From a virus, in IMG/VR virus record IMGVR_UViG_3300019742_000002, positions 1 to 64,000 of that record: 64,000 bases of DNA. One strand, written 5' to 3'. Shown here piece by piece: positions 11,133-60,070 of the stretch (positions are counted from its first letter, which is position 1; every line of letters begins with the position of its first letter). Below the pieces are notes generated by a model, which saw only the letters and a program-made list of their open reading frames with translations, was not told the origin of the DNA and did not search any database. The translations under genes and the position numbers were made by a program.

Positions 11133-13049
11133 ATGGATGAAACTTTAATACCCGAAAATTTTAAAGATATTGATAATATAGCTAAATCTATGGAAATCTA
11201 TACAGAGGGTAGTAAAGAACTAAATAAACTTACTCTAAATCCTATAGATTTACTAGATATTGATTTTCTTATAGACAAATATAATACAACTCTTAATGAA
11301 AATTACAGTAAAATCAAGGAAGAACTTTTCAAGATACACTTAAATGAGGTGTATAATGTCTTTGAACAGGCACAAGAATCAGAAGATATTTACAACAAGC
11401 TTAAAGAGGTTTATAGTTATTATGGAATAACTGATGAGGTAAAGTTAGGGTATCAATTAGAGGATACTATAAATCAAGAATATATAGATTCATCACGAGA
11501 ATACAAAACATCTAAAGGTAGAAAAAAAGCTTTTTATTTCATACACGATATTATAAATAAGGTTAATCTTCAAGAGATAGATAATACAAATTTTATAGAT
11601 ATTATAGAGGGTTCAAATATAGACCCAAATTTACCATATCATTATACAATTAAAACAGCCTTATATAAAGAGGTTGTTGAGGAAACTTTAATACCTCTTG
11701 CTCATCCTTTAGGTTTTATATATTCTTTTATTAAATTTATAGAAACTAGTTTTGAGGATTATTTTAATTTAGATGTTACCGAAGAGATAGGAGACCTTTT
11801 TACCAATTGTTATTCTGAAAGTGGTATTATTCAAACCCCAATAGACGAAACTAATTTCGGTGTACTTTCAAATTATGAAGAAATAACAAGTATCGTAGAT
11901 TCTACCAATAGAGTCGTATTAGATTTTAACGCCATTAACCCTTTTGTACCTCTTGCAATAGAGGATGGTTTTAGATTAGTTAAAGATTATAATGGTTCTT
12001 TATATAAATTCGATAAGCAACTCAAAAAAACAGTAGGATTAGATATAGAGTATCTAAGAATTTCTGAAATAGAGATAGAGGATGGAATGGGTGAATATGA
12101 GATTTTTATGTTTAGTAATGAAATGGACGCTATAGAGCTTATTAGATTCCAACTATATAGAGTACAAGATATTACTGATTTAATTGTTAAATTTAAAATT
12201 AAGGATGATTTACCTAATAAATGGTACATATCTAATATACCTTTGAATAATACCAATATTTATGATGATAGATTATATGATTATAACTTAATAACACCAG
12301 CTAATATTTTTGAGAATGCCTTAGACTATGACGGAAAATTTGTAGAGGAATATACTGATTGTGAGCTTATATTCAATCGTACATATACATATATAGTTAT
12401 CACGGATGATTCGGAATTCACTAATAAAAAACTAAAAAATACCTATGAATATTGGTCAAGATTAACTATGTATAATATACCTCTAGTTTGTACTACATAC
12501 GATTCTATAGACAATCCTTTATACGATTATAATGAATCTATAGAATCTTACTATGCTTATTGTGAAAATACTGAAAATATAAGATATGATGACCCAGATA
12601 ATTCTTATGATGATGAAAATATAGTATATGAAAGTAGTGGACAATTAGGTGTTTATGACGATAATATGATTTATGATGAAGATGGTGTATATGATGATGA
12701 GAATAAAAAACATATATTACATAGATTTGATACAGGGTATAACTCAACATTAGATAATAATAACCTTCCTAGTATTGTTGGTAGAATGGAACACTACTTT
12801 GCACCTGATTACCAAACAGATTTGGACTTAATAAGTTCTCCAACACTTTTACAAGATTACATAGATGGAAATATAGGAAATGATGAGTATTCAGCTAGAG
12901 AGGATTTTATAATGGGTGTTTATATTGGAGGTGTTTTACAAATTGATAATAATATAGGTGCTTTGGTTAGAGATATAAAATATGATGAGATTAATGCTTT
13001 AGGTATAGAGTCTAAATATGATAGTGTTGATGATTTTTATAAATATTAA
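11133..13049 (+). CDS. Putative baseplate wedge protein (gp7-like)
   Basis: YKTSKG..AF.FI and LAHPLGF motifs typical of gp7/tail protein I-like proteins; late promoter; position after gp6. Confidence 0.6.
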   Translation: MDETLIPENFKDIDNIAKSMEIYTEGSKELNKLTLNPIDLLDIDFLIDKYNTTLNENYSKIKEELFKIHLNEVYNVFEQAQESEDIYNKLKEVYSYYGITDEVKLGYQLEDTINQEYIDSSREYKTSKGRKKAFYFIHDIINKVNLQEIDNTNFIDIIEGSNIDPNLPYHYTIKTALYKEVVEETLIPLAHPLGFIYSFIKFIETSFEDYFNLDVTEEIGDLFTNCYSESGIIQTPIDETNFGVLSNYEEITSIVDSTNRVVLDFNAINPFVPLAIEDGFRLVKDYNGSLYKFDKQLKKTVGLDIEYLRISEIEIEDGMGEYEIFMFSNEMDAIELIRFQLYRVQDITDLIVKFKIKDDLPNKWYISNIPLNNTNIYDDRLYDYNLITPANIFENALDYDGKFVEEYTDCELIFNRTYTYIVITDDSEFTNKKLKNTYEYWSRLTMYNIPLVCTTYDSIDNPLYDYNESIESYYAYCENTENIRYDDPDNSYDDENIVYESSGQLGVYDDNMIYDEDGVYDDENKKHILHRFDTGYNSTLDNNNLPSIVGRMEHYFAPDYQTDLDLISSPTLLQDYIDGNIGNDEYSAREDFIMGVYIGGVLQIDNNIGALVRDIKYDEINALGIESKYDSVDDFYKY

Positions 13050-13080
13050 CAAAAGGAAGGCTTAGATATTCCTTTTGTTA
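13047..13080. terminator. Bidirectional hairpin between convergent genes
   Basis: taacaaaaggaa / ttccttttgtta 12-bp stem. Confidence 0.7.
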
Positions 13081-13103
13081 TTTATTAAATTTTTATACTC
13101 TTT

Positions 13104-13499
13104 CTAGTATCCATTCTCGTAGAAATTCATACCTATACTAATAACATCGTCCCAATTATCGGTGGTATCCACATTATAATCTCCAAAAACATCTATATAA
13201 TTATTACCTCTATCACTAACCTCAATTACGAATAACTTAGTACTACCTCTATTAATTGAATAAGATGGTTTTTCATAAACCTTATACTTTTTTGGATTTC
13301 TTCCATAATCATCATAGACTATATCTTCATCAATACCATCATAAAATACAAGTTCAGTACCTTCAGGTAATTTTTTACCCTTAACAAACTTTTTTAAAAT
13401 TCTCTTCATATTAGAATTTTCCATTCTTGTGATGTTATCACTCTCAGATAATTCACTCTCCATAAATTTAACAAAACCCTCATTTAACTTATTACTCAT
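13104..13499 (-). CDS. Putative internal head protein with capsid-targeting-like N-terminus
   Basis: N-terminus MSNKLNEGFVKFMESELSE resembles that of 15010-15303; early and late promoters upstream. Confidence 0.55.
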   Translation of the reverse strand: MSNKLNEGFVKFMESELSESDNITRMENSNMKRILKKFVKGKKLPEGTELVFYDGIDEDIVYDDYGRNPKKYKVYEKPSYSINRGSTKLFVIEVSDRGNNYIDVFGDYNVDTTDNWDDVISIGMNFYENGY

Positions 13500-13524
13500 T
13501 TATAACTCCTTAATTTTTAATTTC

Positions 13525-13585
13525 TTTAAATGTACCTAATTATAGTCTAATAAACTTAAACTAACTTTAAATACAAAACCTTTTA
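13525..13585. repeat. 61-bp exact direct repeat (early promoter cassette), copy 1
   Basis: Identical to 15329-15389. Confidence 0.92.
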
Positions 13586-13618
13586 TATTATTTATAAATA
13601 TTAACAAAAGGAATTATA

Positions 13619-14215
13619 ATGAACTTAGAAGATAATACAAATGATATAGTCGGTCATTTTAGAATAGAATTAAGAAAAAATGATGGAACTATTGAAGTAT
13701 TTGAAGAAAAGAATTTAATTATGGATACAGCTAGAGAAAATATGGCTAATTTAGTCGGTGGATATTCTTTAGGAAATCCTATCAATAAATTTGTACTTGG
13801 TACTAAAGGTCATATAGGGACTGATGTACTTACATTTAAACCTGTTGGTTCTTACGGTTTTGATTCAACAAGAACTGAATTATTTTCAGAGGAGAGTTCT
13901 GATTATACATATCAAATAGATTTTGATACAGTCTCTAGTAATGATATAGAAACAGATGCTCTAGCTGTTGGGGAGATGCAAGGTTCGGGTGTTACAAGTC
14001 TTTGCTCAGTTACTAGAACAATTTTTGAAAGAAGTGTTAAATTTGAGATAACTATACCAGCAGAAGCAGGAAATCCTATTGACGGTTCTAATGCAATTGG
14101 TTATACAGAAGCAGGATTATATGCTGACAATCTATTGTTTAGTCAAAAGACCCTATCAGTAATTGCCAAAGATGAAACTAGTGAGATATATGTCAGTTGG
14201 ACAATAATATTTTAA
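13619..14215 (+). CDS. Baseplate/tail-fibre attachment structural protein
   Basis: GHFRIE..E.KNLIMDTAR, INKFVLGT, YTEAGLY..LFS.K..I.KD....VSWTI pattern of tail-collar/baseplate proteins; late promoter. Confidence 0.6.
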   Translation: MNLEDNTNDIVGHFRIELRKNDGTIEVFEEKNLIMDTARENMANLVGGYSLGNPINKFVLGTKGHIGTDVLTFKPVGSYGFDSTRTELFSEESSDYTYQIDFDTVSSNDIETDALAVGEMQGSGVTSLCSVTRTIFERSVKFEITIPAEAGNPIDGSNAIGYTEAGLYADNLLFSQKTLSVIAKDETSEIYVSWTIIF

Positions 14216-14244
14216 ATTATATAAATAAAATAAAAAGGAATTAA

Positions 14245-14961
14245 ATGTTAAAGTATATACAAAAAAAAGAAAAGTTCAATATCAAAATAGGCTCAAAAGA
14301 GGTTAATTATATCAAATGGACAGGTAAACATCAAAGAGATTATCTAATAGCTTTGGAAAAATCAAAAGAAACTGATGTAACCGATAAGATGATTTTTGAT
14401 TCACTTATTAAACCTTGTGTGGATGAAAAAAATATAGTTCTTTCCCAAAATGAACAAAGATTACTTTTAATTGATATGAGAAAAAAGGGGATTGGAGAAA
14501 CTTTTGAGGATGAAATAGAATGTCCTATATGTAAAAATAAGAAAAAAGTTAAATTAAAATTAGATGATATTATAAAAGAATTTAAAGAATCTAAATGGGA
14601 TGTTATCGAAAAGGACGATATAAAGATAACTATTGGAGAAATTAAGAGTAATAAAGATAAAGATATTTTAATTCCATCTAATGGTGCTATAAAATATGTA
14701 TTTAATGATTTTTTCTTGCATATTAAGAGTATTGAATATAATGGTGAAGTTCACGAGGTTAAAAATATAAAAATTGTTGATAAGTTTTTTCAAGATATGC
14801 CGTCGGATGTTTCTATGTACTTTTTTCAAGAGTATGAAAAGATGACTGATAAATTGGTTCTTGAATATGATTTTATTTGTGATAATGAAGATTGTGATAG
14901 TAAGATTGATGAACCTTATGTAGTTAATTATGATAGGATACCTGGGTTTTTGTGGGTGTAG
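14245..14961 (+). CDS. Baseplate hub assembly protein (gp26-like)
   Basis: LLIDMRKKGIGE...ECPIC...LKLDDI and a C-terminal Cys pair; late promoter. Confidence 0.7.
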   Translation: MLKYIQKKEKFNIKIGSKEVNYIKWTGKHQRDYLIALEKSKETDVTDKMIFDSLIKPCVDEKNIVLSQNEQRLLLIDMRKKGIGETFEDEIECPICKNKKKVKLKLDDIIKEFKESKWDVIEKDDIKITIGEIKSNKDKDILIPSNGAIKYVFNDFFLHIKSIEYNGEVHEVKNIKIVDKFFQDMPSDVSMYFFQEYEKMTDKLVLEYDFICDNEDCDSKIDEPYVVNYDRIPGFLWV

Positions 14962-14972
14962 AATATTAATAT

Positions 14973-14992
14973 AGACCCTCTCGGGTCTTTTA
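14973..14992 (+). terminator. Rho-independent terminator
   Basis: agaccc-tctc-gggtct followed by T run. Confidence 0.7.
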
Positions 14993-15009
14993 TAGTTTAA
15001 GTACATTCC

Positions 15010-15303
15010 TTATTTAGAGTCTAACTTTTCTTTATCCTCTAAGTTTAAGAATCTATCCATACTTAGAGAAGCTATAAATCCATCATCAGCTTCAAATACA
15101 AAATTACTACCTATAACATCCATAATTCTATACCATTTACCTACTGTTAATTTATACCTAGCACTACTAGTTCCATCAGGTTTGGTGAGAAGTCTAAGTT
15201 CATCACCTCTTTTAAATTTATAGTTTCTAATATCATATACTTTTCTCTCATTTAATTCCCTCTCTATAAAATCACTAAAACCCTCATTTAATCTTTTTCT
15301 CAT
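15010..15303 (-). CDS. Putative internal head protein: capsid-targeting-like N-terminus plus SH3-like domain
   Basis: MRKRLNEGFSDFIERELNE then FKRGD...LTVGKWYRI...DDG. Confidence 0.55.
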   Translation of the reverse strand: MRKRLNEGFSDFIERELNERKVYDIRNYKFKRGDELRLLTKPDGTSSARYKLTVGKWYRIMDVIGSNFVFEADDGFIASLSMDRFLNLEDKEKLDSK

Positions 15304-15328
15304 TTTGTGTACTCCCTGTTTTCTTTTA

Positions 15329-15389
15329 TTTAAATGTACCTAATTATAGTCTAATAAACTTAAACTAACTTTAAATACAAAACCTTTTA
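15329..15389. repeat. 61-bp exact direct repeat, copy 2
   Basis: Identical to 13525-13585. Confidence 0.92.
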
Positions 15390-15391
15390 CA

Positions 15392-15625
15392 TTATTTACT
15401 TTTTCTTCTACCTCTACGAACTTTTGGCTCGTCTTCAACAGTTTCAGTATCCTCAACTACAACTTCTAATTCACTAACAGGTTCTTCAATCAATAATTCT
15501 ATTTTTTTAAATTTGCTTTTATTTTTTAAAACAACCTCTACATCATCATTATACATAGCACCTACTTTTATTAATGAAGCTTGTCCATTTACCACTGCCT
15601 TAAATTCCTCTATACATTTATACAT
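15392..15625 (-). CDS. Small late protein with acidic linker and basic tail
   Basis: RBS aaggag; palindromic late promoter 15649-15660; ends KVRRGRRKSK. Confidence 0.7.
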   Translation of the reverse strand: MYKCIEEFKAVVNGQASLIKVGAMYNDDVEVVLKNKSKFKKIELLIEEPVSELEVVVEDTETVEDEPKVRRGRRKSK

Positions 15626-15680
15626 CTTTTACTCTCCTTGTTTTATTTTATTTATAAATAATAAAAAAGGAATTTATAAA

Positions 15681-17189
15681 ATGAGTTCAATTACAGAATC
15701 TTTAAAAAAAGCTCTATTTAATAAACCAAAGAAAGAGGAACTATCCTCTGAACCTGATGTAGATAAAGTTGAAATACATGTAGAAGATAATATTCCTACT
15801 GGCTTTTTTGATAGTTATGATACTACATATTATGGAAATATGTCAAAAGATACATATATTCAGGAGCAAACTAGACTTATAAAAACTTATAGAAAATTAT
15901 CAAATCAACCTGAGGTAGCGAATGCCGTTTCTATTATAGTTGATGAGGCTATTTTTAGTCCGGGTTCTGATGAAATTATTGAATTAGACTTTAAAGGTGA
16001 TACTTCGGATTCTCTTAAGAAAAAATTAATACAAGAATTAAAAAATATTAATAACCAAATAAACTTAGATAAAAATATATATGCACTTTTCAATAGATTT
16101 TATATAGATGGTCAGTTAATCCTTCATACTCCATTTGTCGATAAAGATTTAAAAAAAGGTGTTAAAGATATAAAAGTTCTTAGTCCTTTAAATTTTGGAT
16201 TTAATAGAGATAAGGATGTTTGGGAATATGTAGAGACTGTTAATATAGGTGGATACACAAATACAACCTCAACAAAAGGTGGAGATATTAGTTTTGATAG
16301 AGATGAAATTATAAGAGTGGATTCGGGTATATATTCCGATAATCTTATTTTAGGTAATCTAAATGAATCGATTCTACCATCAAATATCCTAAAATCATTG
16401 GAGGACGCTCTTGTACCTATGAGATTTACAAGAAGTGTTTCAAGACGACTTTTTAATGTGAATGTAGGAAGACTTAATGGGAATAAGGCACAAGAAGCTA
16501 TGAATAAGATTAAAGAAAGTTTTAAATATAAGAAATTTTATAATCTTGAAACTGGAACTATATCTAATCAACAACATATCTCATCTCTTGTAGAGGATTA
16601 TTGGATGCCTAATCAAGGGGGTGAAAGAGGTTTACAAGTTGATACTATTGATGAGACAGGAAATCTAGGCGAACTTGGTGATATTCTACATATCAAAAGA
16701 AAGCTTTATACATCCTTAAAAGTACCCACAAATAGAATAAATGATGAGGGTTCTAATTCTGAATTTGATTTTACTGGTTCTAGTATAGATAGAGAGGAGT
16801 TAAAATTTTTCAACTTTATTTCAAGGTTAAGGAATCAATTCCTAGAATTATTTTACGAACTTCTAAAGAGAAATTCTGTAGCCAAAGGAATATGTACTCA
16901 AAAAGAGTGGGAGGATACGATTGTAAAAGATACTAAAATAAAGTTTGTTTCTGAAAATAAATTCTTTGAAAGAATGGAGAGAGAAAAATTACAGGAGTCA
17001 CTTAATCTTTTTAGAGATATTGAGGATATGGCAGGTAAATATTTTTCTTATGAATATATTTTTAAAGATGTTTTAGGAATGTCGGATGATGGTATTGAAA
17101 AATTACAAGAACAAATTAAGAAAGAAAAGGAGGATGATTTTTATAAACAATTTTATTCTAGTTCGGAAGATGGTGATGAGTGGAAATAA
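15681..17189 (+). CDS. gp20: Portal vertex protein gp20 (true start 15681)
   Basis: PEVANAVSIIVDEAI, FYIDG, LEDALV..R.TRS..RR.F, EDYWMP, LKVPTNR, IDREELKF..FI.RLR; RBS and late promoter before 15681. Confidence 0.95.
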   Translation: MSSITESLKKALFNKPKKEELSSEPDVDKVEIHVEDNIPTGFFDSYDTTYYGNMSKDTYIQEQTRLIKTYRKLSNQPEVANAVSIIVDEAIFSPGSDEIIELDFKGDTSDSLKKKLIQELKNINNQINLDKNIYALFNRFYIDGQLILHTPFVDKDLKKGVKDIKVLSPLNFGFNRDKDVWEYVETVNIGGYTNTTSTKGGDISFDRDEIIRVDSGIYSDNLILGNLNESILPSNILKSLEDALVPMRFTRSVSRRLFNVNVGRLNGNKAQEAMNKIKESFKYKKFYNLETGTISNQQHISSLVEDYWMPNQGGERGLQVDTIDETGNLGELGDILHIKRKLYTSLKVPTNRINDEGSNSEFDFTGSSIDREELKFFNFISRLRNQFLELFYELLKRNSVAKGICTQKEWEDTIVKDTKIKFVSENKFFERMEREKLQESLNLFRDIEDMAGKYFSYEYIFKDVLGMSDDGIEKLQEQIKKEKEDDFYKQFYSSSEDGDEWK

Positions 17190-17225: not shown

Positions 17226-17825
17226 ATGAAAGAATTACAAGAAGCTATAACAGCTGTTGAGGAAGAGAGATTTAGCGATTTTTCAAAAATAATTACAACA
17301 AGTCTTAGTGACAAATTTAGAAATAACCCAAAGGTTCAAGAAATGGCTGATAGGGAATTTAGAATGAAAGGTATTCAAGATGCTTTTAGAGATATTTCTA
17401 GGAAGTTGAATGAGGATGAAAAACCTAAATTTAAAGTAGGAAACGAAGTTATATTTTATGGAGTTCAAGGTGATAAAGATAGAGGTATTATATCTAAATC
17501 TTTTAAAGATGATAATATTAGAGGTGAGAAAGTATATTTTTATGATATAGAAACCAAATCTAAATTAGTAAGAGATGTACCTGAAGGTGATATTTCTAGG
17601 AAGTTGAATGAGGATGAATTAGCTTATACAATATTGGAAAATAAATTAGCTGATAGGGAACTAAAGAAATTGGGATTCTCGTTAGTAACAAATAAAGATG
17701 GGATGAAAGAATATCAAGACGATAATAAAAATACTGTTTGGTTTAGTAGTCATTATTTAGAAACAGAAACTAATGATAAAGAGCTAAAGAAGAAGATAGA
17801 AGATATTTTAAAGTGTAAAGACTAA
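17226..17825 (+). CDS. Prohead core protein (gp67/68 position) with appended domains
   Basis: Lies between portal and protease; DISRKLNEDE occurs twice around an SH3-like domain. Confidence 0.6.
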   Translation: MKELQEAITAVEEERFSDFSKIITTSLSDKFRNNPKVQEMADREFRMKGIQDAFRDISRKLNEDEKPKFKVGNEVIFYGVQGDKDRGIISKSFKDDNIRGEKVYFYDIETKSKLVRDVPEGDISRKLNEDELAYTILENKLADRELKKLGFSLVTNKDGMKEYQDDNKNTVWFSSHYLETETNDKELKKKIEDILKCKD

Positions 17826-17836
17826 GGAGTTTAATC

Positions 17837-18733
17837 ATGAAATTAATAATAGAAAATCCTCTCATTCTTGAAACCGTTATTCAAGATGAGATGAATGAAG
17901 CTATAGGAATGTCAGAAAGAAATTACTATATTCAAGGAATTTTCTCAACACCTGAGGTAAAAAACCGAAATGGTAGAATTTACCCTAGGAGTCTTTGGGA
18001 AAGAGAAGTTAAGGAATATCAAAAGGAAATTTTAGAAAGAACTGTTAATTCATTAGGTGAAAATGAACATCCACCTAGTACCGATATTAATATAGCCAAT
18101 ACAGTTATTAGAATTGTTGAATTAAAAATCAACGAAGATGGTAATGTATGGGGTAAGGCTAAAATACTAAATGATAATACTCATCTTACAAATAAACTAA
18201 AAGGTTTTATAAAAGAGGGTATGAAAATTGGAGTATCTTCAAGAGGATTAGGTTCTGTAAATGAAGATGGTATTGTAGAGGATTTTAAGCTAATAACCTA
18301 TGATGTTGTCTCTATGCCTTCTGATTATAATGCTATGCTAACAGGTCTTCAAGAGGGTTACCAATTTCTTAATGGAATGGCTACTAATAAAGAGTTCAAG
18401 CTAGATGAATCTGGATGTATTTCAGAATGTTCTTTAGAAATTCCTAAGAAAGTTGAGAAGATTGATGAAACTACTTTAGACGAGTTTTCAGGTGATTATG
18501 TGTATGTCCAAGCATTGAAATCAATCCTAAATTCTAAAGGTGCTGAAAAATTATGTGACCTTAGTTTAGATATGAAAGAGGATGTTTTGTCTCAATTTGT
18601 AGATATGATTAGAGAATATGATGGATATGTCAAGGATTATGAAATTTATTTGGAGTCACAAGCTCTAAAAAATGATAAAACCATTGGATATAAAGAATTA
18701 GCTAAAAAGCTTAGGGAATATAATGGAAAATAA
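17837..18733 (+). CDS. gp21: Prohead protease gp21 with C-terminal extension
   Basis: YIQGIF..VKNRNGRIYP, GENEHP, GVSSRGLGS, YDVV..PS. Confidence 0.95.
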   Translation: MKLIIENPLILETVIQDEMNEAIGMSERNYYIQGIFSTPEVKNRNGRIYPRSLWEREVKEYQKEILERTVNSLGENEHPPSTDINIANTVIRIVELKINEDGNVWGKAKILNDNTHLTNKLKGFIKEGMKIGVSSRGLGSVNEDGIVEDFKLITYDVVSMPSDYNAMLTGLQEGYQFLNGMATNKEFKLDESGCISECSLEIPKKVEKIDETTLDEFSGDYVYVQALKSILNSKGAEKLCDLSLDMKEDVLSQFVDMIREYDGYVKDYEIYLESQALKNDKTIGYKELAKKLREYNGK

Positions 18734-18859: not shown

Positions 18860-19576
18860 ATGTTAGAACAAATATTAAACGAGGCTAAGATTGATGATTC
18901 AATTAAGTCACAATTGACCGAAGCTATTGAGAAATCAATAAATATAAAAGCTCTTGAATTAGCAGAAGCTAAGAGTGAAGAATATACTACTCTTGTGGAT
19001 GCTTTTATGAGTGAAAAAACAGAAGCTTTAACTCAAATGTTAGAGAAATATCTTGACAAAGTTGTTGATGATTTTGTTGATACTAATTTAGAAACTATGC
19101 AAGAATCGGCTGATAAACAAAATTATAAAGCTGTATTAGATGGTTTTGGAGCTGTATTAGAAACAGCAGGTGTAGAGTTTATGGATATAGCTGATACTAA
19201 AAAAAGAGTAGATGAATCAAGTGACTTACACGATACTGTGGGTAGTTTAGAATCTAAAATTGATTCATTAGTTTCTGAGAATTTAGAACTTGAAAATAAG
19301 GCTAATAAATATCTAGTTACGGGTCTTAAAAGACAAATTACAGAGGGTATGTCCGATATGAAAAAAGAGAGATTTGAGAGACTTTCGAGTTTTGTTAAAT
19401 TTAATCCAAATGAACCTCAAACTTTTATCGATGCTCTTGATGATATTGCTGAATCACTTTCGGAAGATGCTCCTAGAGAAATTAAAAGGGTGAAAGAAGT
19501 TAGAGAAACTAAGATTGTTAAAGAGAATATACAAGCATCTAAAGACGATATTATGATGGGTAGACACCTTTGGTAG
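18860..19576 (+). CDS. gp22: Prohead scaffold protein gp22
   Basis: Acidic coiled coil between gp21 and gp23; KYLDKVVDDF motif. Confidence 0.85.
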   Translation: MLEQILNEAKIDDSIKSQLTEAIEKSINIKALELAEAKSEEYTTLVDAFMSEKTEALTQMLEKYLDKVVDDFVDTNLETMQESADKQNYKAVLDGFGAVLETAGVEFMDIADTKKRVDESSDLHDTVGSLESKIDSLVSENLELENKANKYLVTGLKRQITEGMSDMKKERFERLSSFVKFNPNEPQTFIDALDDIAESLSEDAPREIKRVKEVRETKIVKENIQASKDDIMMGRHLW

Positions 19577-19637: not shown

Positions 19638-21053
19638 ATGAAAACAATGATAAACGAAAAAGTAAGAGAGAGTATGAAGCATACTTACGGTGAGGATATT
19701 GTAGGGCTTTTGGAGTCTGAAAGATTTCCTGCTATTCAAGAAGATAACTTAGGAACACAAGCTATAGTATTGGAAAATACTAAAAAAGAAATAGCTAGAC
19801 TTTATGAGGATACCTCTACATCAGATGTTGCTGTATTTACACCAATATTTATGCCGATGACTCGTAGAATTCAACCAGCTCTTATAGCGAATAGACTTTT
19901 GGGTGTTCAACCAATGTCACAACAAACAGGTTACATTAATACTCTAATCTTCAAATATACAGGTTTTGGGGCAGACGCTAATGATAGACTTGGTGGAAGA
20001 ATTGACCCTGGTGTTAGTTCGCAAATTATAGAAATTACTGGTCATACACTTGTAAAAGGTGATGTTATCTCTAGTGATAATGTTCCTGATACAAATCTTG
20101 CAACTGTAATATATGTAGAGGGTGATTTACTATTGATTGATACTGCAGTATTTAGTGCAGGTGGAATTGTTTATGATAATGCGGCTGTACCTGCTCAAAT
20201 TGGTGCTTTAGTTATTGCTAATACATATTCAAATCAACTTACTTTTAAGAAAATTCTAAAAGGTTACACAGGTTCACTTCCAACCACACAAGCTGAAATT
20301 CTTGGGTATGATATGAAAGAAATCGGGTTCACTGTTACACAAACTCTTATTGAGGCTAAATCAAGAAAATTGAAAGCTGAATATACTGTTGAAATGTACC
20401 AAAACTTGAAAGATACTTATGGTCTTAATGCTGATGAAGAGTTAATGAATATGATGAGTTCTGAGGTTCTTAACGAGCTTGATAGAGAAGTTATTGATTC
20501 AGTAAACTCATGGGCGGCACCATCTAGTGACTTTACAATAGCAAACGGTGCAGGTGCAAGTGGTTCTACAAGATTTGAGATGGAATCAATGGCTCATATC
20601 GGAGTTAAAATCCAAAATGAAGCTAGAGAAGTTGGAAAATTGACAAGAATGGGTTCAGCAAATATTATATTGGCTACACCAAGAGTTGTTACAGTTCTTG
20701 AACAATTGAGAGGATTTAAAGCTATTGAGAATGATTCTATGTTGAGTACAAATGTAGCTGGAGCAAGTGTTGTTGGAACATTTGGTGGAATGGAAGTAAT
20801 CCTTGATAACTTTACTGATAGAGAGTATGTTACAGTGCTTTATAAGGGAGATAATAGGGCATCTATAGGCTACTACTCACCTTACAAAGGCATCTCATTT
20901 ACTAGAGTAACTCATCCTGATACAGGACAACCTGCTATTATATTGAGTTCAAGATACGGTTTGATTGAAAACCCACTAAACCAAGATAATGGTGTTGGTA
21001 TCTTTGGTAGAACATTTGATGTTATATTTGATTCTACATCGGTATTAGCATAA
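19638..21053 (+). CDS. gp23: Major capsid protein gp23
   Basis: RRIQPALIA..GVQPM, AKSRKLKAEYTVEM.Q.L..GLNADEEL, YYSPY, QPAI..SRYGL..NP. Confidence 0.97.
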   Translation: MKTMINEKVRESMKHTYGEDIVGLLESERFPAIQEDNLGTQAIVLENTKKEIARLYEDTSTSDVAVFTPIFMPMTRRIQPALIANRLLGVQPMSQQTGYINTLIFKYTGFGADANDRLGGRIDPGVSSQIIEITGHTLVKGDVISSDNVPDTNLATVIYVEGDLLLIDTAVFSAGGIVYDNAAVPAQIGALVIANTYSNQLTFKKILKGYTGSLPTTQAEILGYDMKEIGFTVTQTLIEAKSRKLKAEYTVEMYQNLKDTYGLNADEELMNMMSSEVLNELDREVIDSVNSWAAPSSDFTIANGAGASGSTRFEMESMAHIGVKIQNEAREVGKLTRMGSANIILATPRVVTVLEQLRGFKAIENDSMLSTNVAGASVVGTFGGMEVILDNFTDREYVTVLYKGDNRASIGYYSPYKGISFTRVTHPDTGQPAIILSSRYGLIENPLNQDNGVGIFGRTFDVIFDSTSVLA

Positions 21054-24911: not shown

Positions 24912-25196
24912 TTATAATTCTTTAATTTCTATTTTTAAATAAAAACCTCTTTTAACTAATAATCTATGATAAACCATTTTATCTATATAAAATATAGAAC
25001 CTTTTGTTAATCCCATAGGTAACTTATTATCTAATTGTAAATAACAATTATTACTCTCTAAAACCTTTATATGTCTATCTCTTTTATCCCTATGCCACAC
25101 CAATTCTTTAGTATCATTTATATATTCCTCTTTAAACTCTCTTACAAATAAATCTTTATCTATATATGTTTCTACATAAGGTTTACCAAAACGCAT
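24912..25196 (-). CDS. Small cupin-fold protein
   Basis: ELVWHRD..DR.IKV...LQLDN.LP...YHRL; His pair typical of cupins. Confidence 0.65.
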   Translation of the reverse strand: MRFGKPYVETYIDKDLFVREFKEEYINDTKELVWHRDKRDRHIKVLESNNCYLQLDNKLPMGLTKGSIFYIDKMVYHRLLVKRGFYLKIEIKEL

Positions 25197-25722
25197 CTTT
25201 ACTTCCTGAATAATCTAGTCCTAATTGTTTAGCATATCTAGGAAGTCTACAACTCCAATAACCTGCTGTAGTTTTGTCCGTTTTATCCTTACAATTATGT
25301 CTACTAGCAAAATTCTTTCGTGCTTTTTCATTATCTATCTTAACTTTTAATCCTGAAGTATCTCCGAATTGAACTTTAATAATATTACCTTTATTATTTT
25401 TGGTGTATACATAAAATTTCTTAGCTCCACCTCTTTTAGGAGAATTTAATTCTTTTTCTTCTAGTAAAGGATAGTCTAATAATACTTTTGTGTCATATAC
25501 TATTGCACTATTACCTATATCAGTATTTAATACTTCCATTTCAAAAATATCTAATTCGTAATCTAATTTATTTTCTCTTATATAGTTATAATATCTCTCA
25601 AACATATAACTATTAGGTCTGTATAAACATTTTAATATATTATTTGTGTCGATACTTTTTAATATCTCTTTAGTTTCTTCCTCATACAAAAACTCACTCA
25701 TACTAATAAATCTATTTTTCAT
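25183..25722 (-). CDS. Conserved phage protein of unknown function with a capsid-targeting-like N-terminus
   Basis: KKFYVY..KVQFGD..ARKNFASRHNC..TAGYWSC domain; N-terminus MSEFLYEE; part of a late operon. Confidence 0.6.
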   Translation of the reverse strand: MKNRFISMSEFLYEEETKEILKSIDTNNILKCLYRPNSYMFERYYNYIRENKLDYELDIFEMEVLNTDIGNSAIVYDTKVLLDYPLLEEKELNSPKRGGAKKFYVYTKNNKGNIIKVQFGDTSGLKVKIDNEKARKNFASRHNCKDKTDKTTAGYWSCRLPRYAKQLGLDYSGSKDAFW

Positions 25723-25763: not shown

Positions 25764-26438
25764 TTAAATAAAACTATAACTCTTCAAAGGAAATCTCTTA
25801 CCATTTTGATAATATTCTAATTCATAGGTTTTATTCATAAGTTTTTCTCTAACAAGCACTTTATAATTTAAATCATATTCTATATAGCCTTTGTTTTTAG
25901 GTATATTCCCATCGTATTCTAATAAAATTTTAGAACTAGATATAAAACCTTTTATATATTTATTGGTACATATAAAAATATTATATCCTTTATTTTCAGC
26001 TTTACCCCATCTATATATTATAGAATTACCTAATTTTTCGGATAGTTCTTTAAGTTCTGAATGGTCTTGTGCTTTAAATATACATAGATATTCATTTGAA
26101 TTTATATTAACTATATCTTTAGGGAGTATATAGTTCCAATAACTAACATCTTGACCACCTCTTCTTTGTAGTATATAAGCTTCATTTGGGTATCTAGGTT
26201 TTACTACAGAAATAAGCCAAGACTTTTGAGAACTAGAGGCTATATCATAATTAATAAATTTAGGGAGGTCTTTTTCTTGAATATAAAGGTATCTATTGTG
26301 AGGAGGTTTTAGGTAAATAAATTCTTCATATACAACTCCATTATTTCTCGCAGCAGTTAAGAAAGTATTATATTCTTGAACACTATAATATGGGTCAAGT
26401 GTTATGTATAGATATTTTGATTCATTTATGGGGTTCAT
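25764..26438 (-). CDS. Late hypothetical protein (true start MNPINE at 26438)
   Basis: Late promoter 26458-26465 and RBS lie inside the longer track ORF. Confidence 0.65.
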   Translation of the reverse strand: MNPINESKYLYITLDPYYSVQEYNTFLTAARNNGVVYEEFIYLKPPHNRYLYIQEKDLPKFINYDIASSSQKSWLISVVKPRYPNEAYILQRRGGQDVSYWNYILPKDIVNINSNEYLCIFKAQDHSELKELSEKLGNSIIYRWGKAENKGYNIFICTNKYIKGFISSSKILLEYDGNIPKNKGYIEYDLNYKVLVREKLMNKTYELEYYQNGKRFPLKSYSFI

Positions 26439-30431: not shown

Positions 30432-31418
30432 ATGTTAGATTTTAGAGAGGAATTTAAAAACCTACAATTTAATGAAGCTATTATGTTGGAGTTAGAAGAT
30501 ATTGAGTTAGTTGAGCGTATTTTACCTTCACAAGCTATTTCATCAGCCTCAAAGAAAGATGTTAGAAAGATGTCAAGAGCTAACTTACAAAAAATCGTAG
30601 ATAAATTTACGGAGTTTGTGGCTATAGAATATCAAAAACATCCCAAAAAACAAAAATATCTAGGTAGAATGAGATTTATTACGGATACAGGAAAGATTGT
30701 AGAGTATCCTATTAAATCACTTACAAAAGATTCTTATGACAAGATTATAAAAAATAAAGAAGAGGGTAGAGGTAGAGATACATCTACGGATAAAGCTAAT
30801 AATAAATTAAGAGTTGAGGTTGGATATGGTGAATGGATTACTATAAATCTTGATAATGTATTGGGATTGATTTTTAAAGGGAAAGTATTTAGTTTAGAGG
30901 ATATATCTAGGCAAGATTTAGATAATGAAACACAAGAATCAACTATTATGAGATTTGTTAATAATCAAGCTAGAACAAAAACAAAAATAATTAATAATCT
31001 TATACCAATTCTAAAAGAGTTCAATTTTTCTAAAATACCTGATGAAGCTGACGAAGAAAAGGAAAAAAGAAAAGCTTTAAAAAGTATTAGGTCTATGAGT
31101 ACAGTTACTAAGTATATTGCTCAATCAAAAAGAGAAAAGGCTATGGATGACACCAAAGATAGCTATAGTGTTACTGTTAAAGGATACAATCCAAAAGATG
31201 ATTTGTTGCAAGTTGAGGTTAAGATAAATCTTCAAGAAGTTCTAAGTAATTTTGGTTATGATAATTTGACTTTAGGGAAAGTTCCTGAAGGTTTTTCAAA
31301 GAGTGATTGGAAAGAAAAAGTACAAAGTATAAAAGATGAGATTAGTGAGGTATTTGTAGCTAATGGGTTTAACTGTAAAGTAGGTAGAGCTTGGATTAAT
31401 TGTATAGTAGAGGGTTAA
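30432..31418 (+). CDS. Late protein, probable internal head protein
   Basis: Late promoter; N-terminus MLDFREEF..LQFNEAIMLELE. Confidence 0.55.
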   Translation: MLDFREEFKNLQFNEAIMLELEDIELVERILPSQAISSASKKDVRKMSRANLQKIVDKFTEFVAIEYQKHPKKQKYLGRMRFITDTGKIVEYPIKSLTKDSYDKIIKNKEEGRGRDTSTDKANNKLRVEVGYGEWITINLDNVLGLIFKGKVFSLEDISRQDLDNETQESTIMRFVNNQARTKTKIINNLIPILKEFNFSKIPDEADEEKEKRKALKSIRSMSTVTKYIAQSKREKAMDDTKDSYSVTVKGYNPKDDLLQVEVKINLQEVLSNFGYDNLTLGKVPEGFSKSDWKEKVQSIKDEISEVFVANGFNCKVGRAWINCIVEG

Positions 31419-45334: not shown

Positions 45335-46036
45335 TTATTTAATATAAGCTATCAATCTATACTCTGATTTATCAGTTTTAGGTGTAATTGACCAAATCTC
45401 ATCATCTTTCATTCTAGTTAAATCATCCGAAATAATTGTAGATGTAATATTATCATAAAGAACTACCGAAATTCTTTTATCGTCTATCATATATTTCCAC
45501 TCTTGATTGGAATTAATAAAATTCTTCCAAAGTTTTATAGCGTTTATGTGTTGAACTGAATCGGACATAATTATATCTCCATCAAACATCATAGACTTAT
45601 ATATAGCAGTAGCCATTCTTTTACCTCTATGAGATGTATGAGTATCAATAGCTTTTACCTCTTTCACTTCACCAAATTTTTTATTTTTTACTACCTTGAA
45701 GTTCATATAACTATATATTTTAAACAATCCCTCATTACAAACTCCTAACATAGTTCTTGAAATGTTATTTGTTAATATAACATAATTCTTAAGGTTTTTA
45801 CCACCTTTATTATATATAGCATCAAAATTTCTAATATAGGATTGTGAATAATAATCTATATAATCATCAATCCCTTGTAGTTTCATTAAAGTTTCTTGTC
45901 CAAATTGACAATCCTCATACTCAGCAACAGGATTTTCATTAACATATTCAGAAAATGTTTTGAAATGATACCTATCATCCTTATAATTGTTTATATATTT
46001 TACAACAAACTCTCTAAAATCCATTATATCTTTCAT
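45335..46036 (-). CDS. GNAT-like acetyltransferase with capsid-targeting-like N-terminus
   Basis: THTSHRGKRMATAIY (acetyl-CoA motif A), IMSDSVQ..AIKLW; N-terminal FKTFSEYVNE. Confidence 0.6.
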   Translation of the reverse strand: MKDIMDFREFVVKYINNYKDDRYHFKTFSEYVNENPVAEYEDCQFGQETLMKLQGIDDYIDYYSQSYIRNFDAIYNKGGKNLKNYVILTNNISRTMLGVCNEGLFKIYSYMNFKVVKNKKFGEVKEVKAIDTHTSHRGKRMATAIYKSMMFDGDIIMSDSVQHINAIKLWKNFINSNQEWKYMIDDKRISVVLYDNITSTIISDDLTRMKDDEIWSITPKTDKSEYRLIAYIK

Positions 46037-48369: not shown

Positions 48370-48870
48370 CTATACCTTAGCAGAGAATAAGAATACCATT
48401 TCGTCGCTGTTTTTTTTATAACTGTCAAAATTTGAGTTATTAAATATACTAGAACTACTAACATCTTTAAAAACTTGCTCCATTTCATCTTTAGAGATAC
48501 TTTTAGTTGATATAGATATATGGAAATATATCTTTCCATTTTTATAATCAACTAACTTCATATCAAATTTATGTATGTCCATTTTATTTAAAGTATTATT
48601 CAAGTATCTAATATCTTTATTTATCTTTATGGTTTTATCAAACTCTATATCTTTTGTTGTTATTAAGTCTTTAGAGGTTACTTTATCTATATTACCGTTT
48701 TTAATATAGATAACTCTAGCTTCTGTTGGAGATACAAATTTATCAAAAAAACCTATTTGACCGTCTACAGTTATAAATTTATCGTATACCTCAAATTCAT
48801 TAAAATTACCTTTACCCTCATTTAAGCTCATTTTCACAAACTCACTAAATCTCATATTTATTTTTTTCAC
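48370..48870 (-). CDS. Putative internal head protein
   Basis: N-terminus MRFSEFVKMSLNE; early promoter near 48889. Confidence 0.55.
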   Translation of the reverse strand: MKKINMRFSEFVKMSLNEGKGNFNEFEVYDKFITVDGQIGFFDKFVSPTEARVIYIKNGNIDKVTSKDLITTKDIEFDKTIKINKDIRYLNNTLNKMDIHKFDMKLVDYKNGKIYFHISISTKSISKDEMEQVFKDVSSSSIFNNSNFDSYKKNSDEMVFLFSAKV

Positions 48871-59957: not shown

Positions 59958-60070
59958 AAATACCTCTTTGATAATATTTATAAATAGTTATATAATACCA
60001 AAATAAACTTAAAATAACCTTAATTTTAAATAAAATTACACTATAATTAATAAAACATAAAGGAGAATGA

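Follow-up and report, generated by a model that had tools for sequence, protein, structure and literature searches.

Three small genes with a common N-terminal leader in an uncultured T4-like phage, candidates for head-packaged internal proteins

One targeting leader on diverse payloads is a textbook feature of the T-even phages (PMC3012670, PMC9026906). The IMG/VR record analysed here belongs to an uncultured T4-like phage and is about 47% complete; its contig measures 91.7 kb, and the window is the 64,000-nucleotide stretch of it in which the genes described below are located. Two small minus-strand genes, g13104 and g15010, share an upstream sequence and an N-terminus and then diverge, which raises the question of why proteins that are otherwise unlike each other begin alike. 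A first-pass annotation of the sequence had answered with a dispersed family of about eight T4-like internal proteins, in which promoter and leader would travel as one reusable cassette. From the sequence we lean towards a narrower answer, that g13104, g15010 and a third gene, g48370, encode three internal proteins which would be packaged into the head and trimmed there by a protease.

The leader and the proteins that carry it

13104..13499, minus strand: g13104, 131 aa, open reading frame with an AAGGAG ribosome-binding site (RBS); leader at residues 1-19/22, payload at about 25-131, an uncharacterised family
13443..13499, minus strand: leader-coding segment of g13104, with L-N-E at 5-7, F9/F12/M13 and L-S-E at 17-19
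15010..15303, minus strand: g15010, 97 aa; leader at residues 1-19, basic orphan payload (pI 9.3)
15247..15303, minus strand: leader-coding segment of g15010, MRKRLNEGFSDFIERELNE
48370..48870, minus strand: g48370, 166 aa, third leader gene; GTG start at 48870, AAGGAG RBS, orphan payload

The first 19 residues of g13104 (MSNKLNEGFVKFMESELSE) and g15010 (MRKRLNEGFSDFIERELNE) are identical at 11 of 19 positions (BLASTP E 3e-5), and past the leader BLASTP finds no significant similarity, as the first-pass annotation had described. A BLOSUM profile built from these two leaders and scanned over 24,100 windows from all other proteins gave its best two scores, 33 and 29, in g48370, the next best being 23.5. 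Read from its GTG, g48370 begins MKKINMRFSEFVKMSLNE-GKGNFNEFEV and carries two overlapping leader units, at residues 4-18 and 16-30. Outside the leader the three proteins show no significant similarity to one another, and the presence of the leader in one N-terminal register on three unrelated proteins argues for packaging into the head.

Six further similar starts had been proposed. The one at 48370 is the gene recovered by the profile, whereas those at 45335, 25183, 30432, 63280 and 25764 show no significant similarity, and the family of about eight contracts to three genes. FKTFSEYVNE, quoted as the start of 45335, occupies residues 26-35, and in 25183 the quoted MSEFLYEE has its first residue at position 8; 25764 probably does start with MNPINE, from an ATG at 26438 that has a late promoter 20 nt before it. 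Loose motifs of the capsid-targeting type were enriched only 2.5-4 fold at N-termini, with a post-hoc p of about 0.01. None of the eight proposed members gave an informative match in Pfam or PHROG.

Mutagenesis of the T4 tag assigned targeting to residues 4 and 7 (Y, F) and processing to residues 8 and 10 (I, E) (PMC9026906 section 2.6). The leader described here has aromatics at i/i+3, a hydrophobic residue and then L-x-E at 17-19; N6, F9, F12, L17 and E19 are invariant across the three genes, and position 13 is always hydrophobic. The aromatic pair F9/F12 (F8/F11 in g48370) lies five residues further in than T4 Y4/F7. As a match of sequence, L17-[S/N]-E19 closes the leader in all three genes (L16-N-E18 in g48370), and two of the three carry an extra L5-N-E7. 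These invariant positions are of the residue classes important in T4, which speaks for a packaging function. A regular expression derived from T4 leaders only, [FY]..F.{0,9}[LI].E, points the same way, with 4 of 132 N-termini matching (0.5-1.0 expected) and three of the four being the leader genes; because the three leaders are paralogous, such enrichment figures amount in essence to a single independent observation.

It is very improbable that the three are instead paralogues over their whole length, one family whose C-terminal parts drifted beyond recognition and which has no swappable payloads. A weak match joins g13104 67-85 to g15010 15-33 (E 0.14-0.8) and VYD follows the leader in both g15010 and g48370, but the proteins differ in length (97, 131 and 166 aa), lack significant similarity outside the leader, and include a payload whose family stands alone. 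This is the payload of g13104, for which six stand-alone homologues of 107-142 aa were found; they have no leader, and their alignment starts at residue 23-25 or so. The leader is therefore an add-on. In the AF2 model of g13104 (pLDDT 87.5, domain above 90) the leader helix, residues 4-18, is separate and of low confidence; a payload that exists without leader and a leader modelled as a separate helix both favour packaging.

The g13104 protein has no family in Pfam or PHROG, and Foldseek found no match to its model in PDB and BFVD. VIA-align placed frataxin, PsiB, an Rhs immunity protein and AcrIIA11-like alpha+beta sandwiches at the top (Z 6.4), which is not taken as evidence because the score is below the tool's noise level of 7-8; T4 IPI* is absent from the top 50 VIA-align matches. 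A HMMER match to the 1859-aa leucine-rich-repeat protein P0008 was rejected as a repeat artefact. For g15010 the only relative found is an ortholog (P0006, 98%) in the related genome L006, and its single-sequence AF2 model (pLDDT 44) is unreliable and unusable. A resemblance of its payload to the SH3-like insert of the protein encoded at 17226-17825 (KFKRGDEL vs KFKVGNEV) was rejected (E 0.19). For g48370 neither family nor homologue was found, and the ESM Atlas offered nothing usable on it or on g15010. A word-based homologue search with g13104 and g15010 returned self or near-self only, and neither tblastn against GenBank phages nor searches of viral contigs for the cassette and for the leader pattern revealed relatives. 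Related-locus searches with g13104, the protease, the portal and the leaderless homologues P0011 and P0013 revealed none either, the one locus retrieved being a 7.7-kb fragment (L001, 99%).

At the DNA level the leaders of g13104 and g15010 are about 79% identical, and the RBS spacer that separates the cassette from the start codon has diverged. All 11 residues conserved between them use identical codons, with zero synonymous differences, and leader conservation could for this reason stem from DNA that was duplicated recently, or from an element acting in the RNA, instead of from selection on the peptide. The nucleotides TTAAATGAGGGT are conserved in all three leader genes, and the shared 12-mer lies at +13 in two of them and at +46 in the third. 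Conservation at both nucleotide and peptide level would suit a tag for something else, be it modifying enzyme, host factor or protease degron, or an mRNA-level translational operator at TTAAATGAGGGT. We consider this alternative unlikely: with the 12-mer shifted in one gene, an operator at a fixed site close to the start is improbable, and a tag for another partner leaves unexplained the likeness of the leader to the phage's own head-protein N-termini. A radical-SAM gene, which could supply a modifying enzyme, was looked for and not found in the 91.7 kb available of this roughly 47% complete record.

Promoter, hairpins and the module around g13104

13525..13585, minus strand: 61-bp promoter cassette, copy 1, exact repeat, containing TTAAGTTTA-N6-TATAAT
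15329..15389, minus strand: 61-bp promoter cassette, copy 2, exact repeat, abutting the stop codon of gene 15392-15625
13050..13078, minus strand: hairpin 3' of g13104 with a 9-bp stem, -7.8 kcal/mol, z -2.2
14973..14988, unstranded: GC-rich hairpin between gene 14245-14961 and g15010
13036..13058, unstranded: left 23-bp direct repeat, TTTATAAATATTAACAAAAGGAA, perfect, bounding the g13104 module
13591..13613, unstranded: right 23-bp direct repeat, identical with the late promoter and RBS of gene 13619-14215
13059..13613, minus strand: 555-bp indel module comprising hairpin, g13104, RBS, cassette and one repeat copy, absent in L006

The cassette sits 26-86 nt upstream of the g13104 and g15010 open reading frames, and these are its only two exact occurrences in the 91.7-kb contig. 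Its core, TTAAGTTTA-N6-7-TATAAT, occurs 11 times in the window, always on the minus strand (0.03 copies expected), and just two of these copies are identical over 61 bp. The core is the phage's general promoter for minus-strand genes and not, as had been supposed, a private part of a leader cassette. Its TTAAGTTTA box is similar to TTTAAGTnTT, the -35 motif of C. jejuni (PMC3824568), but is placed closer to the -10 box.

All three leader genes have this early-type promoter directly upstream. The late promoter TATAAATA, a frequent motif in this AT-rich genome, lies 90-92 nt upstream of g13104 and g48370; for g15010, the preceding gene has TATAAATA at -24. A hairpin stands downstream of each of the three genes (-7.8, -11.6 and -18.5 kcal/mol); the hairpins have no sequence in common and are separate from the promoter motif. 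Each leader gene can be read as a promoter-gene-hairpin module. The hairpin at 14973..14988 could serve bidirectional transcription termination. Elsewhere the contig holds another gene pair with a near-identical 5' end, in a non-virion context.

The 97.5%-identical relative L006 lacks the entire 555-bp module and has one copy of the 23-bp repeat (alignment, blastn), and g13104 is thus an accessory gene. PMC3012670 cites Repoila et al. 1994 for polymorphic internal-protein loci in T-even phages, and PST differs from T4 in five internal-protein differences (PMC4122927). Presence or absence of the g13104 module between two such close genomes resembles these loci and adds to the case for packaging. 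In contrast to the single T-even locus the leader genes are scattered (13 kb, 15 kb, 48 kb), and the indel is bounded by a 23-bp late promoter/RBS repeat.

PeSL promoter/stem-loop cassettes have been documented to drive the shuffling of modules among T4-type phages (PMC2839356, PMC4122927). The phage resembles such systems in its dispersed early-type promoter motif, in hairpins beside small novel open reading frames and in an indel ending at regulatory repeats; it differs in consensus (TTAAGTTTA-N6-7-TATAAT) and in that the repeat bounding the indel is a late promoter/RBS and not the early cassette. The main alternative is accordingly that the leader is a functionless passenger, promoter and 5' coding end having recently been recombined or duplicated in front of ordinary early accessory genes. 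We find this rather doubtful. The 11 dispersed core copies, the promoter-gene-hairpin build of each leader gene, the repeat-bounded indel, the identical codons and the second gene pair with a near-identical 5' end all suit it, but the leader is in frame and in register on three different payloads, and the positions retained match in residue class those important in T4. With the cassette 100% identical, the RBS spacer scrambled and the leader 79% identical, the leader is older than the cassette copy, its key positions having survived. Shuffling is moreover compatible with a functional tag, since T4 ipII and ipIII show both.

Head-assembly genes and comparison with other phages

17226..17825, plus strand: gene in prohead-core position, between portal and protease; the protein starts MKELQEAITAVEE and has two DISRKLNE-DE repeats
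17837..18733, plus strand: gp21-family prohead protease (phrog_207 E 7.7e-51; 37% identity to T4 gp21, E 2e-22)
18860..19576, plus strand: gp22-type scaffold, N-terminus MLEQILNE-AK (phrog_237 E 1.8e-11)
19638..21053, plus strand: gp23-type major capsid protein, N-terminus MKTMINE-K (phrog_138 E 1e-73)

Packaging of the leader proteins in the T4 manner gains from the presence of genes for a gp21-family protease, a gp22-type scaffold and a gp23-type capsid protein. The LNE-G of the leaders mirrors ILNE-A of the scaffold, MINE-K of the capsid protein and the repeated KLNE-DE of the core-position protein, as the T4 tag QEFIAE-A mirrors the T4 gp22 N-terminus EQLIAE-A; this co-variation of leader and scaffold N-terminus is a further argument for packaging. 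The amphipathic leader of about 19 residues would act like the T4 capsid-targeting sequence, docking each new protein on the scaffold core while the prohead assembles. Cleavage by the gp21-type protease would come after the Glu of L-[N/S]-E at residue 19, and possibly also after L-N-E at 7, leaving the freed payload inside the head to be delivered to the host along with the DNA. In T4, an Asp at the cleavage position prevents processing yet leaves targeting intact. Recombination at short regulatory repeats would create new leader-payload genes and move them as units of promoter, gene and hairpin.

In T4 (NC_000866) ipII and ipIII have a common early-promoter/stem-loop region and MKTYQEFIAEA and then diverge. 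That T4 ip genes likewise stand behind early-type promoters, with upstream regions in common, is consistent with packaging of the leader proteins. The analogy with T4 drawn in the first-pass annotation is sound, given this equal architecture, the leader residues of the same classes as the T4 determinants and the gp21-type protease. T4 propeptides are 10-19 aa long (PMC9026906 section 2.6), and in the T4 sequence IPI is cut after I17-T-E19. Both phages place a short N-terminal leader, in our phage a putative propeptide, on unrelated small proteins, with an i/i+3 aromatic pair followed by [LI]-x-E, and in both the tag resembles the scaffold N-terminus and upstream promoter regions are held in common.

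Against packaging stand the absence of homology between leader and T4 tag and the general early-type promoter in front of the genes. The aromatics are at 9/12 in place of 4/7, two L-x-E motifs (5-7, 17-19) are present, P2 is Asn/Ser where T4 has Ala/Thr, and g48370 has a tandem leader unit. Mature g13104 would be acidic (pI 4.8), whereas the T4 internal proteins are basic. Sequence homology to T4 IPI, IPII or IPIII did not emerge, as tblastn gave no hit in 50,697 phage records and no PHROG or Pfam family matched, so that any membership in this class would be functional or analogous and not by descent.

Campylobacter phage CP30A, which is available in culture, has detectable portal DNA similarity to the analysed phage. 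Three of its unrelated late genes, gp092, gp136 and gp151, start with (MN[VI])YS[KI]F[LI]NE, which aligns residue by residue with T4 MKTYQEFIAE, [LI]NE taking the place of IAE; no description of it on these genes was found in the literature consulted. T4-like [LI]NE leaders on three unrelated late genes of a related lineage also support packaging here. CP30A shares with our phage unrelated payloads and a leader ending in [LI]-N-E, but its leader is compact (8-10 aa), keeps T4 positions 4/7/8/10 and follows directly behind TATAAATA late promoters, where the analysed phage has 19 aa behind an early-type promoter; the compact T4/CP30A-type motif had no regular-expression match in the 91.7 kb available. 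The giant phages phiKZ and SPN3US also process many head or ejection proteins with a gp21-related protease that cuts at x-x-E (PMC5694885, PMC7411985), yet their cleavage consensus differs, the proteins are much larger and a short common leader is not the organising principle. In Vibrio phage Va1, whose capsid protein is the best match (42%), the head module is rearranged, and the region read contains no leader like this one.

Meaning for T4-like phages

Injected internal proteins act ahead of any phage gene expression. Some of those of T4 counteract host defence: IPI blocks GmrSD, and IPIII is required on E. coli ECOR17 (PMC3012670; bioRxiv 10.1101/2022.04.14.488369). The three leader genes are plausible candidates for injected helper proteins of this kind, and their payloads might have anti-defence activity. 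The value is incremental, because the principle is already known from T4, where ipII and ipIII have the same architecture. The yield would be three new orphan candidates, one of which, g13104, has a confidently modelled fold with no clear match among known structures.

A leader recognisable in a distant, AT-rich T4-like branch would give a sequence rule for such proteins in uncultured phages. Tentatively, the leader may be a packaging adaptor particular to this lineage and predictable from sequence, which free-standing genes can acquire by grafting, its tag co-evolving with the scaffold N-terminus; together with the CP30A leaders it could make the injected cargo of the Campylobacter-phage-related T4-like branch readable from sequence, new first-response anti-defence proteins included. 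If this is true, the leaderless homologues of the g13104 payload would catch the grafting of a leader in the act and exemplify, in nature, how a free-standing gene gains a packaging tag.

The leader, its cassette and its members

Genes g13104 and g15010 each lie downstream of one copy of an exact 61-bp repeat bearing a promoter (the cassette), and share with a third gene, g48370, an N-terminal leader of about 19 residues. On balance, we regard the three products, from their sequences, as candidate internal proteins with a targeting leader.

13525-13585: cassette, copy 1, upstream of g13104
13104-13499, minus strand: g13104, 131 aa
15329-15389: cassette, copy 2, upstream of g15010
15010-15303, minus strand: g15010, 97 aa
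48370-48870, minus strand: g48370

The proteins of g13104 and g15010 are identical at 11 of their first 19 residues and show no significant similarity to each other past residue 19, which bears out the first-pass annotation of an identical cassette and a common N-terminus followed by divergence; that all three proteins are diverged paralogues is highly improbable. At the DNA level the two loci differ by segment: identity is 100% in the cassette and about 79% in the leader, with a scrambled RBS spacer in between, and cassette copying is therefore placed later than the leader. The leader DNA differs only non-synonymously, with the same codon at every conserved residue, and these data do not tell selection on the peptide apart from common DNA descent. 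The identical codons leave room for a recent duplication, with the leader a functionless passenger of cassette shuffling, which we consider possible but doubtful, and also for an RNA-level explanation; that the leader is an RNA element, or another kind of tag, is unlikely.

Residues 5-19 of these two leaders were made into a BLOSUM62 profile, which was scanned across 24,100 windows in the remaining 130 predicted proteins. Its highest scores, 33 (residues 4-18) and 29 (residues 16-30), both fall in the N-terminus of g48370; the next is 23.5. This gene (GTG start, AAGGAG RBS upstream) carries a leader aligned in register, shorter by one residue, and a second unit overlapping the first. In a six-frame scan of the full 91.7-kb contig the motif [FYW]..[FYW][IVML]...[LIVM].E occurs, among real genes, only at the three N-termini. 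About eight members had been proposed; the profile scan retains g48370, and the other five (45335, 25183, 30432, 63280 and 25764) have no significant similarity to the leader.

Weaker patterns, noticed post hoc, serve as leads only. The predicted proteome has three instances of DFRE, each occupying residues 3-6 of its protein, and the tetrapeptide may, by sequence, represent a second, looser class of N-terminal motif; two of the three genes lie 20 nt downstream of TATAAATA.

30432-31418, plus strand: DFRE gene
45335-46036, minus strand: DFRE gene
L007:2566-3198 (contig 66566-67198, beyond the window), minus strand: DFRE gene

F.EF is about five-fold enriched within the first 15 residues, permuted control motifs showing no enrichment, and the late gene 25764 starts MNPINE. 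A compact T4-type regular expression had no match in the contig. The product of 25183-25722 (minus strand) matches phrog_7595 in its C-terminal residues 90-159 (E 1.5e-9); its first 89 or so residues are extra and start MKNRFISMSEFLYE, where F-L-Y-E resembles L-Y-E of the capsid protein.

Payload, indel module and promoters

HMMER searches of 1.84 billion representatives delivered six homologues of g13104 (107-142 aa, 30-37% identical), which match it from residue 23-25 or so to its end and themselves start at that point, lacking the leader. The leader is an add-on to the g13104 body. AlphaFold with the homologue alignment gave a confident model (pLDDT 87.5), with the leader as a detached, low-confidence helix (4-18) and the body (25-131) as an N-helix, a seven-stranded sheet and a C-helix. 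Fold searches with this model found no convincing match and the family look-up no existing name. The payloads of g15010 and g48370 are orphans.

A metagenome scan for the leader recovered a contig (L006) with both flanks 97.5% identical to the window. In L006 the g15010 ortholog is present and its leader is identical, but a 555-bp module of hairpin, g13104 and promoter cassette is missing. Perfect 23-bp repeats (13036-13058 and 13591-13613) border this module in the window; they include the following gene's late promoter and RBS, and L006 has a single copy. Thus g13104 is an accessory gene, in keeping with T-even phages, whose internal-protein genes are polymorphic (PMC3012670). Each of the three leader genes is a promoter-gene-hairpin unit, and these units and the indel fit PeSL-type modular shuffling (PMC2839356, PMC4122927). 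The passenger reading is further favored by a second gene pair with a common 5' end in this genome: L007:10165-11214 and L007:12896-15310 (contig 74165-75214 and 76896-79310, both minus strand) are of unequal length with almost identical first 30 or so residues (MTLKEELEKLRNSKGEIRNLAFYS...). L006 also has a TAA stop (325-327) at the window's TCA codon 11493-11495, residue 121 of a 638-aa baseplate-region gene (11133-13049), which reflects a sequencing error or else a defective variant.

Late genes have TATAAATA 18-26 nt upstream. A dispersed motif, TTAAGTTTA-N6-7-TATAAT, precedes minus-strand genes; its 11 copies, where 0.03 would be expected, are confined to the minus strand, and its box resembles the -35 motif of C. 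jejuni (TTTAAGTnTT, PMC3824568) but sits nearer the -10. The three leader genes have early-type promoters, with late promoters only at a distance. The late promoter core frequently takes the form of the near-palindrome TATTTATAAATA (13588-13600, 15648-15660, 59974-59986), giving divergent genes a copy of TATAAATA on each strand of the interval that separates them.

Head genes and comparison with T4 and CP30A

The record (91.7 kb, 26% G+C, about 47% complete; the window is its first 64 kb) is, by sequence, that of a T4-like myovirus. Head-gene assignments have PHROG E-values of 1e-11 to 1e-122, with T4 counterparts 27-37% identical.

15681-17189, plus strand: portal
17226-17825, plus strand: core-position gene in the portal/protease interval
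17837-18733, plus strand: gp21-family protease
18860-19576, plus strand: gp22-type scaffold
19638-21053, plus strand: gp23-type capsid protein

The sole nucleotide similarity to GenBank phages is a portal segment, 66% identical to Campylobacter and a few Vibrio phages; the capsid protein best matches Vibrio phage Va1 (42%).

Among the T4 sequences compared, ipII and ipIII have MKTYQEFIAEA in common, along with similar early-promoter/stem-loop regions, before they diverge; the propeptide of IPI is 19 residues long and ends I17-T-E19. Mutagenesis of the T4 tag assigned targeting to Tyr4 and Phe7 and processing to Ile8 and Glu10, with propeptides of 10-19 residues (PMC9026906). Conserved in all three leaders are F9, F12, L17, E19 and, at position 13, a hydrophobic residue; the aromatic pair is displaced relative to that of T4. 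A regular expression built from T4 leaders alone matches four of 132 N-termini, including all three (0.5-1.0 expected); since these three are paralogous, the count amounts to one family meeting an independent rule.

In T4 the tag mirrors the way the scaffold itself begins (gp22, MLKEQLIAEA). The present phage has MLEQILNE-A at the start of its scaffold, MKTMINE-K at the start of its capsid protein and KLNE-DE at two sites in the core-position protein, from which LNE would seem to be its lineage's counterpart of IAE. The core-position product starts MKELQEAITAVEE, two DISRKLNEDE repeats flank a small beta-rich segment, and it looks like a core protein with predicted cleavage at KLNE.

Campylobacter phage CP30A (NC_018861), a cultured relative, offers independent support, at the level of sequence. 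Three of its proteins, unrelated outside the leader, start (MN[VI])YS[KI]F[LI]NE, fitting positions 4, 7, 8 and 10 of MKTYQEFIAE, with TATAAATA directly upstream of each gene.

L009:29609-30022, minus strand: gp092, no homologue in other GenBank phages
L011:26849-27313, minus strand: gp136, annotated putative exonuclease
L011:35207-35917, minus strand: gp151

[LI]NE lies within the first 12 residues of nine of 153 CP30A proteins (2.4 expected), one a gp24-like vertex protein. CP30A gp069 (L009:6556-7335, minus strand), kept in about 40 Campylobacter phages, has KGITLNEA twice in its N-terminus, then SINES, followed by an acidic linker; homologues of its C-terminal domain (residues 156-244) occur in cyanophages and Pseudomonas phages, and a processed head protein is one possible identity.

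The internal-protein reading would account for four features: the leader has a constant register and conserved positions, it resembles the N-termini of head proteins encoded by this phage, it is an add-on, and the leader genes are accessory. This reading is only somewhat more likely than not, and the displaced aromatic pair and the promoter type count against it. A common targeting leader with diverse payloads is already established for T-even phages; to that precedent this case usefully adds an indel module and payload homologues without the leader.
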